From NCBI RefSeq assembly GCF_042660085.1, contig NZ_JBHSTI010000008.1, forward strand, positions 1,209,876 through 1,241,875: DNA of 32,000 nt, written 5' to 3'. The stretch's first letter is position 1, and each line of letters starts with the position of its first letter. The DNA comes from Longivirga aurantiaca (GTDB lineage Bacteria; Actinomycetota; Actinomycetes; S36-B12; CAIYMF01). Positions 4,462 through 17,198 of the stretch are shown here, one piece after another. A program made the translations under genes and the position numbers. Under the pieces are notes generated by a model, which was given only the letters and a program-made list of their open reading frames with translations, had not been told where the DNA came from and ran no database searches.

Positions 4462-5928
4462 GTGCCCTCGAAGCCGACCACGGCCACCAAGAAGACCGCT
4501 CCGGCCAAGGCTGCTGCGCCCGCGAAGAAGACCCCCGCGAAGGCTGCGCCCACCCCGGCTGCGAAGGCCGCTCCGGCGAAGAAGGCCGCGCCCGCCAAGA
4601 AGGCGGCCCCGGCCAAGGCTGCCGCTCCCGTCAAGGCCGCACCGGCCAAGAAGACCGCCCCGGCCAAGGCCGAGGCTCCCGCGAAGAAGGCGTCGCCGGC
4701 CAAGGCCGCCACCACGGCCGCCCCCGCCAAGGGTGCCGCCGTCGCCGAGGGCGACGAGGAGGACGTCGAGATCGATGTCGCCGAGCTCGAGGGCGACGTC
4801 GTCATCGACCCCGAGGCCGACGTCGCCGAGCCCGACCTCGCCGAGGCCGCGGTGCTCGAGGTCGAGCTGGAGGCCGAGCTGGCCGTCGACCTCGAGGAGG
4901 TCACGGGCGACGAGCCCAAGAAGGAGGGCGAGCCCGCCGCCGAGGAGGAGTCCGAGGCGTTCGTCATCTCCGACGTCGACGACACCGACGAGCCCGTCCA
5001 GACCGTCACGGTCGCGGGTGCGACCGCCGACCCGGTCAAGGACTACCTCAAGCAGATCGGCAAGGTCCCGCTGCTCAACGCCGAGCAGGAGGTCGAGCTC
5101 GCCAAGCGCATCGAGGCCGGCCTGTTCGCGGAGGAGAAGCTCAACTCCGGGATCAAGCTCTCGAACACCGCCCGCGGCGACCTCGAGTGGATCGCCGAGG
5201 ACGGCCGTCGCGCCAAGAACCACCTGCTCGAGGCCAACCTCCGCCTGGTCGTCTCGCTCGCCAAGCGCTACACCGGCCGCGGCATGCTGTTCCTGGACCT
5301 GATCCAGGAGGGCAACCTCGGTCTGATCCGCGCGGTCGAGAAGTTCGACTACACCAAGGGCTGCAAGTTCTCGACGTACGCCACCTGGTGGATCCGTCAG
5401 GCGATCACCCGCGCGATGGCCGACCAGGCCCGCACCATCCGCATCCCGGTGCACATGGTCGAGGTCATCAACAAGCTCGCGCGCGTGCAGCGCCAAATGC
5501 TCCAGGACCTGGGCCGTGAGCCCACGCCGGAGGAGCTGGCCAAGGAGCTCGACATGACGCCCGAGAAGGTCGTCGAGGTCCAGAAGTACGGCCGCGAGCC
5601 CATCTCGCTGCACACCCCGCTCGGCGAGGACGGCGACAGCGAGTTCGGCGACCTGATCGAGGACTCCGAGGCGATCGTGCCGGCCGACGCCGTGTCGTTC
5701 ACGCTGCTGCAGGAGCAGCTCGACTCGGTGCTCGACACCCTGTCCGAGCGCGAGGCCGGCGTCGTGAAGATGCGCTTCGGTCTCACCGACGGCCAGCCCA
5801 AGACGCTGGACGAGATCGGCAAGGTCTACGGCGTGACGCGCGAGCGCATCCGCCAGATCGAGTCCAAGACGATGTCCAAGCTGCGTCATCCCAGCCGTTC
5901 CCAGGTACTGCGCGACTACCTGGACTGA
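4462..5928 (+). CDS. sigA: principal (group 1) RNA polymerase sigma-70 factor
   Basis: Conserved regions: 1.2 [31 protein letters not shown]; 2 [76 protein letters not shown]; 3 and 4.2 [41 protein letters not shown]. Start chosen at GTG 4462 (VPSKPTT...) after GAGAGG. The 737-aa track ORF from 3715 overlaps the upstream gene and is Arg/Pro junk. Confidence 0.95.
4480..4740 (+). repeat. in-frame Pro/Ala/Lys (PAKKA-like) low-complexity coding repeats in the sigA N-terminus
   Basis: [75 protein letters not shown], encoded by reiterated gcc/gcg-aag-aag units. Followed by an acidic block (4740-5000: [33 protein letters not shown]...). Confidence 0.8.
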
Positions 5929-5944
5929 TCCAGCGCCGTTCGCT

Positions 5945-5977
5945 GCTGAGACCCGTTGCTGCGCAGCGGGTCTCAGC
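5945..5977 (+). terminator. stem-loop 17 nt after the sigA stop (likely intrinsic terminator, no U-tail)
   Basis: Perfect 11-bp inverted repeat: gctgagacccg (5945-5955) / cgggtctcagc (5967-5977), with an 11-nt loop. Confidence 0.6.
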
Positions 5978-6015
5978 GCTTGAGCCCGCGAACCGGACGG
6001 GTCGGTTCCGGCTGG

Positions 6016-6720
6016 ATGGTCGATCTGCGAGCCCTCCGACCCGACCTCCCGCCCACCGTGCTCAACGGCCCGCTGGGAGCGCACCGCACCGCGGACTGGT
6101 TCACAGCCGACCTGGGCGACCTCTCCCGGGTCGCGGACCGAGCCGGGTGCCGGATCAACGACGTCTACCTCGCTGTCATGGCCGGCTGCCTGCGGAATGT
6201 CCTGATCGACAGGTCGGAGCTCGAGGCGACCACCCGCGTACGGGTCCTGGTGCCGGTGTCCATGCGCCGGAGCGCGTCCGACCTGCGCGCCGGCAACCTC
6301 GACGCGGCGTTCTTCATCGATCTCCCGGTGCACCTCGAGTCGCCGCGGGCGATTCTCGACGACATCGCACGGCAGACGAGCGGAGCCAAGGCAGCCGGCG
6401 ACCCGCTCGCGACGGAGCAGCTCCTGCGCGCCGGTGACCTCGTACCCGTGCCGCTGCTCGATCGCGGCCCGGGCCTACGTGCGCCCGGCCAGGCACGGGT
6501 GAACTTCGTGGCGTCGGACGTCCGCGGGCCGAGCGAGCCGCTGGAGCTGTGCGGTCGACCGATCCGCGACATCGTGCAGTGCCTGCCGCTGGCGCTCGAC
6601 GTGCGGGTCACGAGTGCGCTCGTGTCGTACGCCGGCCGCGCGGTCGTCTCGGTGACTGTCGACCACGCGGTCTCGCCCGATGCCTCGACCCTGACCCCGC
6701 CGGTCGGTGACAACCGCTAT
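6016..6720 (+). pseudogene. 5'-truncated wax ester synthase/diacylglycerol acyltransferase (WS/DGAT) C-terminal-domain remnant
   Basis: LNGPLGAHRTADWFTADLGDLSRVADRAGCRINDVYLAVMAGCLRNVL...VLVPVSMRR...AGNLDAAFFIDLP...VNFVASDVRGPSEPLELCGRPI...VSYAGRAVVSVTVDHAVSPDAS is collinear with the WS/DGAT C-terminal domain. The N-terminal catalytic HHxxxDG half is absent. There is no native stop: the frame reads through to 7260, across the next gene. Confidence 0.6.
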
Positions 6721-16018: not shown

Positions 16019-16258
16019 TCAGCCGCACGCAGGTCCTGCGCGACGGACACGGTGCTCGACGCCGACCCGCCGCGGTTCCGGGACGGCGTCGCCGTGCGCC
16101 GCACGGGCCGACGGGACAAGGTCGTCGGCGGCCTCCTCCCGCAGCCGCGCATCGCCCGTAGCGTCGGCGAGACTCGCGGCTGCCTGGCGGTCACGCTGGA
16201 GGTGGGCCACGAGCGTGCGGCTCCGGACGCTCGACCCCGTCACCGCCGGAGGTGCGCC

Positions 16259-16756
16259 ATGAGTGACGTCCCCAACGGACCCGTGCTTCACCAGGACCAC
16301 CCGACGCTGCGGGTGATCGGGCACGCCGCAGCCGTGATCGGCGGGGGCATCGTCCTGATCTACGCGGCCCTCGGCCTCTACACGGGTGTCCTCCTTGCGA
16401 TCAGCCACACACTCGGCGCCGGGAGTGTGACCCAGCTTCCCGGGCTGCTCTTGAGCATCGTCATGCTGGGCTGGCTGATGATCGTCGGGCTGCTGACCGT
16501 GCTGGCGCTACGCCGCTGGCCGCGCAGCCTGGGCACGGCCGCGTGGCTCGCCGTACCGACGGCCAGCATCCTGCCGCCGATCACGATCGCCCTCGCCGAG
16601 CAGCCTGCGTGGCTGCTGCTCGCGGTCTGCGCCGTCATCGTCGCTCCGGTCCTCTGGCTCATGCATCGCAGGAACCAGCCGTGGGAGCAGCTGCTCTCTG
16701 TGGCCTGGGTGGCTGTCGCGCTGGGCGCGTTGGTGCTGCTCGGCGTCGACGTCTGA
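16259..16756 (+). CDS. small polytopic membrane protein, function unknown
   Basis: ATG 16259 after GGAGG ([15 protein letters not shown]...), then four or five hydrophobic helices. The upstream part of the 234-aa track ORF is Arg-rich and unlikely to be coding. Confidence 0.6.
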
Positions 16757-17045
16757 CGGCGCTGACGGGATCGTCGATCGGCCCACGGCACCGGAGGGCC
16801 GACCGCAGCGTGGGTCAGCCGCGATTCGCAGTGAGGCTGATGCACCGTTCGTGGCCGGCCACCGCCGTGCTGCAGGGACCACCGCGGGTCGGCTTCCAGA
16901 TCTTCCGCCGCCTCGGCGACGGGTGAATCGAGTCCATGGTGGAGGTCTGGACTCACCTGCAGTCCTCCTTCGACCCGGACGAGATCCGCATCGGCTGACG
17001 AGGCATCACACGGGACGGTTAGTTGCGCCACCGGAGTGGACTCGA

Positions 17046-17198
17046 GTGGCGAGCGCAGTTGGCCTCGCCGACGGCCAGCCCGAGACCCTCGACGAGATCG
17101 GCACGGTCTACGGCGTGACGCGCGAGCGCATCCATCAGATCGAGTCCAACACGATGTCCACGCTGCGTCATCCCAGCCGTTCCCAGGGACCGCGCGAC
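17046..17198 (+). pseudogene. copy of the sigA 3' end lacking the gene body and native stop (remnant B)
   Basis: 17070-17198 aligns without gaps to sigA 5788-5916 with 10 mismatches in 129 nt (hand count): [42 protein letters not shown] vs [42 protein letters not shown]. Weaker gapped similarity runs back to ~17046 and none is visible upstream. The antisense track ORFs 17019-17411 and 4165-6333 share the mirror-image peptide. Confidence 0.85.

Follow-up and report, generated by a model that had tools for sequence, protein, structure and literature searches.

Integrase-less attachment-site relics behind sigA in Longivirga aurantiaca point to the sigA 3′ end as a probable phage integration site

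We analysed a 32,000-nucleotide (nt) stretch of the genome of Longivirga aurantiaca (contig NZ_JBHSTI010000008.1, positions 1,209,876 to 1,241,875), referred to here as the window, in which the principal sigma factor gene sigA is followed by partial repeats of its own 3′ end. The window has an actinobacterial GC content of 71.6%. sigA starts with a GTG at 4462, with a GAGAGG Shine–Dalgarno sequence, ends with a stop codon at 5926-5928 and lies downstream of usp (universal stress protein gene), an arrangement common in Actinomycetota. The C-terminal 329 amino acids (aa) of SigA are at most 93% identical to those of other Actinomycetota (best of 80 loci; compared loci are cited by L numbers). 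An initial annotation had noticed three same-orientation copies of the sigA 3′ terminus bracketing accessory DNA and had asked whether they recorded a fossil integration. We find that the repeats are of two kinds: short attachment (att) site relics, here R1 and R2, and a longer displaced sigA tail, here copy 2. Taken together with the integrases found behind sigA elsewhere, they indicate that a family of temperate phages of actinobacteria probably uses the sigA 3′ terminus as its bacterial attachment site (attB), and the window would hold integrase-less scars of such insertions.

The features on which this rests, in window coordinates with fold energies in kcal/mol, are:
4462-5928, plus strand: sigA, principal sigma factor and attB-bearing target (Pfam Sigma70 r1_2, r2, r3, r4)
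5908-5928, plus strand: att core in sigA, CTGCGCGACTACCTGGACTGA, the last six codons (LRDYLD) and the stop
5945-5977, plus strand: strong hairpin 3′ of the sigA stop (-38.3, z -4.3)
8822-9007, plus strand: R1, with an attP-like layout of arm, core and arm (P-O-P′), from profile models and motif positions
8829: AGGATA box of R1
8843 and 8880: motif GCACAGCG of R1, 37-38 nt apart
8902-8922: core of R1, GTGCGCGACTACCTGGACTAG, after a 12-nt spacer behind the second motif, with 18 consecutive nt equal to sigA
8929-8977: decayed hairpin of R1
8997: P′ motif of R1, GCACAGCGCT
10962-11054, plus strand: R2, with an attR-like P-O layout that starts with the box AGGTATTGCA
10974 and 11012: motifs GCACAGC and GCACTGCG of R2, 38 nt apart and followed by a 12-nt spacer
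11034-11054: decayed core of R2, GTGCGCGACCAGTTGGGCTGA, 17/21
11086-11119: strong hairpin after the R2 core, also the 3′ end of a small minus-strand open reading frame (ORF), orf11115 (-40.5, z -5.0)
17061-17198, plus strand: copy 2, a 5′-truncated sigA tail (region 4.2) of the own-lineage allele, from blastn and a profile model

Attachment-site relics R1 and R2

Hidden Markov models (HMMs) of the P arm plus core and of the P′ flank were built from other loci only, with the window excluded, and run on the window with nhmmer. The first matched R1 over 8822-8920 (E 1e-9, model positions 5-104, nearly the full model) and R2 with an E of 2e-8, a newly recognized site; at the window's sigA end its core portion alone matched. 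The P′ model matched R1 over 8902-9007 (E 5e-4). In the closest relative, L117 (87.9% nt identity), the R1 P′ flank finds its counterpart in an attL flank (z 7.5) and the R2 P arm in an attR relic (z 13.1), with which it has the spacer CAGGCGTCCGGAG in common. The motif spacing of R1 and R2 (about 38 and 12 nt) and the distance of about 74 nt from the R1 core to its P′ motif are those of the cultured Streptomyces phage Kromp and of loci L085 and L013, and the alignments of R1 and R2 are in register with Kromp-type attP and attR sites. The sigA core, R1 and R2 all lie on the plus strand, as direct att sites flanking integrase-less DNA beside the target gene; the common orientation of the sigA copies reported initially also holds.

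R1 had been described as a third, much decayed copy of the sigA tail at 8836-8922. That similarity is real over 8890-8922: a local alignment of 5892-5926 with 8890-8920 scores 43, against a maximum of 33 in other window tiles and with none of 500 shuffles reaching 43, and is the third-best sigA-tail match in the window. The identical 16-mer that was also seen then, after which R1 has a stop codon just where sigA does, extends to an exact match of 18 nt (5909-5926 = 8903-8920). Extended backwards to 8836, the alignment is equalled by 16% of other window pieces, and 8822-8889 is not sigA-like but matches the phage-side att arm. On these alignments, R1 is best read as phage-derived arm plus core and not as a decayed block of sigA.

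The hairpins after the sigA stop, R1 and R2 are homologous to one another and to the hairpins that follow sigA in the relatives L097 and L098 (z 4.6-10.1); the hairpin behind the window's sigA aligns with that of L098 (z 6.3) and with the post-R2 hairpin (z 4.6), and the latter with that of L097 (z 7.1). R2 has this hairpin and no P′ motif. Because genomes with an empty site (L095 and L096, below) have no hairpin after sigA, the hairpins probably arrived with the elements, and the one behind the window's sigA is probably the remnant of a phage-supplied P′ flank that was cut off near 5990-6040.

The 12-13-nt spacers between motif and core resemble sigA just 5′ of its core (CAGCCGTTCC / CAGGCGTCCGGAG) in R1 (8890-8899), at 11020-11033 in the window and at 7305-7318 in L117; the spacer common to R2 and L117 also explains the 10-mer cagccgttcc in R1. 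This suggests that the phages of this clade may carry an extended, imperfect sigA mimic upstream of the core, unlike Kromp and the attP sites from IMG/VR.

The initial observation that no integrase is present held up near the window cores, both by tblastn with eight integrases of the family described below (best E 0.5) and by Pfam searches of ten ORFs in the non-coding tracts, which found none. A recurrent 22-aa integrase-like match on the minus strand at 16922-16987 (E ~3) was judged to be chance, and tblastx of the L013 element against the window was uninformative in such high-GC DNA.

Kromp-type integrases at the sigA ends of other Actinomycetota

In most of 80 species, sigA ends with the identical 21-mer or with a variant carrying one or two substitutions, a near-invariance that arises because LRDYLD and the stop are universal and GC content at third codon positions (GC3) is high. 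The core would thus offer integration a stable and broad target. The same 21-mer recurs as attR or attP beside Kromp-like integrases. When about 300 nt around each sigA stop were compared with the gene's own 20-kb locus across the 80 species, same-orientation repeats of the terminus were found downstream of sigA in L013 (24 nt at a distance of 9 kb), L015 (22 nt at 0.9 kb) and L078. In L013, a tyrosine integrase starts 117 nt after the sigA stop (Pfam Phage_integrase 2e-27, with a SAM-like N-terminal domain), and the 24-nt repeat, with one mismatch, forms a complete attL/attR pair around a 9-kb element that holds the integrase and an HK97-type capsid gene. L011 has a frameshifted integrase homologue in the equivalent position. 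The sigA-terminus repeats that flank integrase-bearing prophages in other Actinomycetota measure 21-24 nt.

Viral contigs gave the same association. An exact-pattern scan of IMG/VR with the 21-mer CTGCGCGACTAYCTSGACTGA returned five contigs, four with a sigA end followed by a homologue of the L013 integrase and one with an attR without sigA. Searching IMG/VR with the integrase yielded eight loci, five of them on contigs of 27-79 kb with the integrase in mid-contig and no sigA nearby. In these five, GTGCGCGACTAYCTBGACTGA precedes the integrase, by about 760 nt in L090 and by about 130 nt in the other four, and we read these loci as phage attP sites that mimic the sigA end. A second pattern scan added three further contigs with a sigA end and an integrase.

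In total, the family comprises 16 loci encoding a tyrosine integrase of about 300 aa that is 44-69% identical to that of L013. The core motif (G/C)TGCGCGACTAYCTNGACTGA lies upstream of the integrase in 15 of the 16, at 93-324 nt in 14 and at about 760 nt in L090; the sole locus without it, L091, is on a contig that ends 218 nt upstream of the integrase. Nine or ten loci sit directly behind sigA (L011, L013, L082, L083, L085, L086, L108, L116 and L111, the last with a sigma gene 70% identical), and six are attP sites in phage contigs or Kromp, with no sigA nearby. The attP mimics of the sigA 3′ end that the initial annotation had proposed to look for therefore exist, in Kromp and in five IMG/VR loci, as a 21-nt core.

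The integrases are XerC/D-like, and their sites share a layout. On the P side, an AGGnTATTGCA box is followed by two GCAYRGCG motifs about 38 nt apart, the second ending 12 nt before the core; on the P′ side come a strong hairpin directly after the stop, a third motif (GCAYRGCGYT) 63-75 nt past the core, a CCAGATAT/GGAGATAT box and the integrase gene. In Kromp (MH744420.1; integrase gp36, 83% identical to the L092 homologue and about 65% to that of L013), attP consists of a AGGATATTGCA box, two GCATGG motifs, a 12-nt spacer, the core GTGCGCGACTATCTCGACTGA, a hairpin (-36.6 kcal/mol, z -6.1), the third motif and the integrase gene. R1 and R2 match this layout on the P side and in the core, and in part on the P′ side, but Kromp is an intact 58-kb phage, whereas the window holds the DNA sites only, without integrase or phage genes. 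We found no published attB of Kromp, our literature search giving only incidental mentions of the phage. The nearest large cultured group, the integrases of Cluster E mycobacteriophages (for example SirDuracell gp51), is 43% identical over 90%, and similar AT-rich GATAAT/ACACCG-type motifs precede the integrase there; the attP region has no sigA-like core, so Cluster E would target another site.

Relics trailing sigA also occur in L001, L015 and L057. Those in L015 (Mumia, 10984-11914) and L057 (Ornithinibacter, 3751-4776), which are unrelated genera, are mini-relics of about 0.9 kb that run from a P′ flank to a P arm and core; by eye, the one in L015 apparently contains one small minus-strand ORF and no integrase. 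In L078 (Branchiibius cervicis, 11056-11100), 45 nt that start at the sigA end recur as a tandem repeat of 97.8% identity some 90 nt further downstream.

The lineage-specific insert and the displaced sigA tail

We located the closest relatives through full-length SigA and an ABC1 kinase encoded in the window. L095 and L096 provide an empty site, with a convergent ferritin-like gene 26 nt after sigA; in blastn, window 4-5928 corresponds to L095 5680-11488 and window 18826-20112 to L095 11515-12799. The insert in the window is therefore 5929-18825 and takes in the SnoaL-like and nitrilase genes at its right end. The copies consequently do not delimit an element of about 11 kb, as had been supposed, and the predicted empty site of sigA followed by the SnoaL-like and nitrilase genes gives way to the sigA/ferritin-like junction. 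The insert contains:
5929-18825: whole insert relative to the empty site in L095/L096, 12.9 kb (blastn)
6040-6706, plus strand: 5′-truncated WS/DGAT pseudogene (Pfam, last 41 positions of WS_DGAT_cat and WS_DGAT_C only)
6786-8351, plus strand: flavin amine oxidase exported by the twin-arginine (TAT) route, cargo between the sigA core and R1 (Pfam Amino_oxidase 2e-51, TAT signal)
9103-10734, minus strand: fusion of an MFS transporter with a cNMP-binding domain, cargo between R1 and R2 (segment S2; Pfam MFS_1, cNMP_binding)
11115-16756: block S3 (Pfam), beginning with orf11115
12132-13487: BBE/FAD oxidase (S3)
13649-14617: putative lipoprotein (S3)
14705-16018: ABC1 kinase (S3)
16052-16756: membrane protein (S3)
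17251-18807, plus strand: SnoaL-like protein and nitrilase (17854-18807), segment S4 (Pfam), within the lineage-specific insert

Pfam bore out the gene content listed for the intervening DNA by the initial annotation; its description as accessory was right in that the insert is lineage-specific, but not for the ABC1 kinase, which has orthologues of 74-85% identity across the clade, lies about 5.4 kb downstream of sigA in L117 and is a conserved gene of the clade, not foreign DNA. The WS/DGAT pseudogene is 74% identical at the nt level to a full-length WS/DGAT gene in L117. The SnoaL-like and nitrilase genes are absent from the empty site, and nitrilase orthologues (81-86%) stand in three unrelated contexts in relatives (L101, L102 and L103); the nitrilase appears to be a frequently relocated gene. 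One relative's nitrilase adjoins a DNA methylase and an HTH/Gp49-like toxin–antitoxin pair. The island proteins had no matches in all other compared loci. The composition contrast foreseen initially is slight: GC content is 70.3% in the insert versus 72-73% in the flanks, and tetranucleotide correlation falls below the flank range in S2 and S4 only. This fits old acquisitions or related donors and is decisive neither way.

The sigA/ferritin-like junction behaves in these comparisons like an insertion hot spot of the clade. L097 carries a different insert there, of 4.66 kb, with a phenol/toluene-hydroxylase operon. In L098, which has lost the ferritin-like gene, sigA ends with TAG, as R1 does, and has a luciferase-like gene as its next neighbour. 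L117 has an integrase-less relic pair of its own, made up of a P′ flank (4606-4711, E 1e-6) and an attR relic (7243-7338, E 6e-6). The L097 insert (11514-16176) is a complete six-gene operon, preceded by a hairpin homologous to the post-R1 one and without an att arm on its right side.

Copy 2 differs from R1 and R2 in length and content. The initial annotation had aligned 5788-5916 with 17070-17198 at 10 mismatches and no gaps; there are exactly 10, and blastn extends the match to 138 nt (5779-5916 versus 17061-17198, 91.3%, ungapped, E 7e-52). tblastn carries the similarity to 17046-17204, and a sigA-tail HMM from 84 other species matches 17059-17198 (E 5e-34). The match breaks off at HMM position 189 of 201, with GCGCGAC as its last letters, and so ends halfway through the att core; of the 12 nt that remain to the stop in sigA, 6 are identical, and the stop itself is missing. 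The 12 mismatches, mostly A/T to G/C, comprise 3 synonymous and 8 nonsynonymous changes and 1 third-position change inside an R-to-H codon. At the 3 synonymous sites copy 2 retains the state of the relatives, and at third positions it has 3 mismatches to L098, 5 to the window's own sigA and 9-10 to L117, L095 and L097. Copy 2 is a pseudogene fragment of own-lineage sigA, with substitutions that fit neutral decay. An ORF at 16851-17288 (plus strand) keeps it in the native sigma frame (Pfam Sigma70_r4 positions 15-50, 2e-9) and overlaps the SnoaL start; it is probably not a gene, because the substitutions look neutral.

Two explanations that dispense with integration fare badly here. In mycobacteria, sigA has sigB in its neighbourhood, and copy 2, which encodes region 4.2 in frame, might be the last remnant of a decayed sigB or group-2 sigma paralogue. 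However, its nt identity is 91% and it has sigA's own lineage-specific synonymous codons, and no sigma homology, which the initial annotation had named as a sign of a paralogue, was found upstream of 17046 by tblastn or six-frame inspection. Moreover, a sigma paralogue downstream of sigA is absent from all 80 related loci; the paralogues detected are upstream of sigA on the opposite strand and 45-50% identical. A paralogue is thus effectively refuted and, in our estimate, highly improbable. We consider chance similarity or an assembly artefact to be just as improbable. The genome is apparently a draft, its contig measuring 2.36 Mb, and short GC-rich matches are common, such as one at 16020-16044 with an nhmmer E of 1.1, but the E values of copy 2 (7e-52, 5e-34), R1 (1e-9) and R2 (2e-8) are of another order. 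In addition, a divergence of 9% between the copies makes read collapse or duplication unlikely, and the same kind of relic appears in independent assemblies.

The match at 16020-16044 adds a fourth short stretch of sigA-like sequence, cagccgcacgcaggtcctgcgcgac, which agrees with the L117/L095-type allele at 23/24 positions and, like copy 2, ends at GCGCGAC. It immediately follows the ABC1 stop, 17 nt beyond position 16003, where synteny with L117 breaks, and may be chance, given its E value. Over its last ~16 nt, the ABC1 gene departs from its orthologue in L117 (15990-16018 versus L117 11275-11332); homology ends at 16002, so the breakpoint falls inside the 3′ end of ABC1 and gives it a new, shorter C-terminus.

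The right-hand neighbours of copy 2 bear on its origin. In L095, L096, L097 and L098 the ferritin-like/luciferase block adjoins the end of sigA on its left; in the window copy 2, followed by the SnoaL-like and nitrilase genes, takes this place, and it therefore most likely marks the ancestral junction. In L117, by contrast with the window, ABC1 is followed directly by DUF6390/EamA (window 30006-32000), and window 16003-30005 is missing. One deletion in L117 explains this most simply, and leaves room for a translocation history, in which a translocated or horizontally acquired block (sigA tail, SnoaL, nitrilase and ferritin-like to pyr-redox genes, ~16003-30005) was put between ABC1 and DUF6390/EamA of an L117-like genome and copy 2 is its left edge, without any integration at sigA. 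That block is exactly what L117 is missing, and the third positions of copy 2 are nearest to an L098-type allele. Against this, translocation needs more events than one deletion in L117, and the adjacency of the sigA end to the ferritin-like/luciferase block is ancestral in L095, L096, L097 and L098. R2 and the L117 attR relic look orthologous, which would place the ABC1 block downstream of sigA before the lineages split, and the window's own sigA tail is L098-like too. We regard a translocation as distinctly unlikely.

Upstream of about 4785 the window is closest to L117, and the conserved part of sigA is slightly closer to L098 (0.96-0.99 versus 0.92-0.98). This switch in allele affinity may reflect recombination inside the gene, but the contrast is slight for a gene so conserved and not decisive. 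The Ala/Pro/Lys-rich N-terminal part of SigA also contains an internal direct repeat of about 160 nt and ~70% identity (4469-4625 versus 4577-4739).

A Kromp-type mechanism does not explain copy 2, because it duplicates only the 21-nt core, and copy 2 is 138 nt long. A site-specific element whose attP carried a long (~150 nt) replacement sigA 3′ end would do so by inserting ~150 nt before the stop, in the manner of e14 or phage 21 at icd, and displacing the original tail to its far end. The topology fits: the repeat is direct, the gene on its left is intact and the copy on its right is 5′-truncated; sigA is a probable target of other integrases, and the e14/icd-icdC precedent is documented (PMC13626634). 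However, a copy displaced in this way is expected to run through the original stop, and copy 2 ends 12 nt short of it; no recombinase was found beside either copy; and both copies share lineage-specific synonymous codons, so the mimic would need to come from the same lineage. Searches of phage, plasmid and IMG/VR collections found no element with a long sigA mimic. We therefore judge this route unlikely, if better placed than a translocation. The missing long-mimic element and the end of copy 2 inside the core instead favour a one-ended homologous event, and we hold with only moderate confidence that copy 2 arose by one-ended homologous recombination (Campbell-type or homology-facilitated illegitimate) with own-lineage DNA and not through a Kromp-type integrase.

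The candidates rejected in those searches were of several kinds. The phage collection yielded only human-gut 'Bacteriophage sp.' contigs whose sigma-like 3′ ends have ~70% identity, the plasmid collection full sigma genes, and the region-4.2 pattern in IMG/VR flanking sigA genes or phage ORFs with a sigma r4 domain. The gut contigs (MT837335.1, MT839319.1, MT836547.1, MT836311.1, MT837906.1 and MT836422.1) are short, with sigma-70-like 3′ ends that in several lie near the contig end; they may reflect an analogous use of the sigma-gene end, or phage sigma genes. Two IMG/VR phage ORFs, in L106 (8652-9071, 139 aa) and L115 (7975-9072, 365 aa), contain a stretch whose DNA is nearly identical to that of the helix-turn-helix of sigA region 4.2; they encode phage proteins that include a sigma r4-like domain and do not represent att sites.

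Integration history, precedents and implications

From these relationships we infer the following order of events. A XerC/D-like tyrosine integrase would recombine an attP carrying a 21-nt copy of the sigA end with the sigA core. To judge from the sequences, crossover within the core would preserve the sigA reading frame, give the gene a stop codon and a terminator of phage origin, and place the element immediately downstream of sigA. The site would have been used at least twice, and probably three times, in this genome. Each arrival would enter at the working sigA core, push the older arm–core–hairpin module to the right and turn the previous core–P′ into P–core–P′; the oldest and most decayed module, R2, would therefore lie furthest from sigA, and R1 would be younger. 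Integrases and phage genes would later have been lost, leaving att-flanked cargo. Copy 2 would stem from a separate, older event: the ABC1 block would have gone in upstream of it, bringing an intact sigA end along or re-creating one. Copy 2 would have been stranded beside the ancestral downstream neighbour, the ferritin-like gene, and lost the right half of its core later. The initial idea of the sigA 3′ end as a repeated integration anchor thus survives on the strength of integrase-bearing prophages, phage attP sites and an empty site, with copy 2 outside the short-core mechanism.

Several observations weigh against this account. No integrase, excisionase or phage structural gene, nor a pseudogene of one, was found in the window, and the intervals between att sites carry ordinary-looking intact genes and not prophage debris. 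The R2 core matches at 17/21, for which chance is not negligible on the core alone, so that its significance rests on the arm; the present sigA end keeps the hairpin only, without a P′ motif. The family integrase has no lambda-type arm-binding domain, which leaves the flanking motifs only putative accessory-binding sites. Integration of the family at sigA is deduced from the sequence relationships of attL, attR and attP, and most supporting loci are metagenome-assembled genomes or IMG/VR contigs. None of the simple models predicts a copy 2 without its last 12 nt, and the block absent relative to L117, being 16003-30005, permits a different history of copy 2.

That elements insert at the 3′ end of a conserved gene and restore it is classical. 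Prophages and islands in tRNA and tmRNA genes work in this way: their target is highly conserved, they recombine at its 3′ end and repair the gene they enter, and short direct repeats mark the two ends of the island. At the sigA site, by contrast, the target is the last codons and stop of an essential gene for a protein, conserved through that protein (LRDYLD and stop) and GC3 bias and not through RNA structure. The best analogue of copy 2 in topology is the icd gene of Escherichia coli, where e14 or phage 21 supplies a replacement 3′ end and a displaced icdC fragment remains (PMC13626634). Both cases involve a housekeeping protein gene as attB and a same-orientation displaced 3′ fragment, but e14 has its integrase and its fragment runs to the original stop, whereas the window has no recombinase, a fragment 12 nt short and a phage family whose core is only 21 nt.

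For the array as a whole, the closest parallel is the tandem accretion of cis-mobilizable elements (CIMEs) related to ICESt1 and ICESt3 at the fda 3′ end of Streptococcus thermophilus, in which newcomers enter at a gene-end site to give tandem att-flanked modules and att sites are kept while recombination and transfer genes decay (PMC5704250). Like a CIME, the window has at least two direct att sites, integrase-less DNA between them and integrase-bearing relatives at the same site elsewhere, and L117 has a comparable attL–attR relic. The CIME examples are integrative and conjugative or mobilizable elements of Firmicutes, whereas the active relatives at the sigA site are phages or phage-like elements of Actinomycetota, and mobilization of the relics is putative. 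The kind of system is thus known, in the form of 3′-end integration with restoration, tandem accretion and att relics; the target gene appears to be new. In line with the initial annotation, which knew of no such description, full-text searches of part of the journal literature found no report of sigA/hrdB as an attachment site, and phage database annotations, for example, may already record one. A bolder reading, which we think doubtful, makes the sigA stop-codon end a class-wide attachment site of Actinomycetota specialized for phages, where integrase-less cargo cassettes build up between intact att cores, incoming Kromp-like phages could excise, exchange or mobilize them in trans, and GCGCGAC ends mark strand exchange. 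It is similarly doubtful whether, on such a cassette platform, copy 2 and possibly the piece at 16020-16044 record past mis-recombination and repair of the sigA end.

If the sigA terminus is an attB, it would provide a predicted integration site for Kromp and its relatives, and its near-invariant 21-nt target could yield new, potentially very broad-host-range integration vectors for actinomycetes. It would explain the variability of the DNA just downstream of sigA among related genomes and offer an example of phage-driven accretion of ordinary metabolic genes beside an essential gene. It would also be a warning to annotators, since stop-rich non-coding tracts and short stretches of sigma-like sequence behind sigA would then be att scars, and not regulatory elements or the remnants of paralogues.

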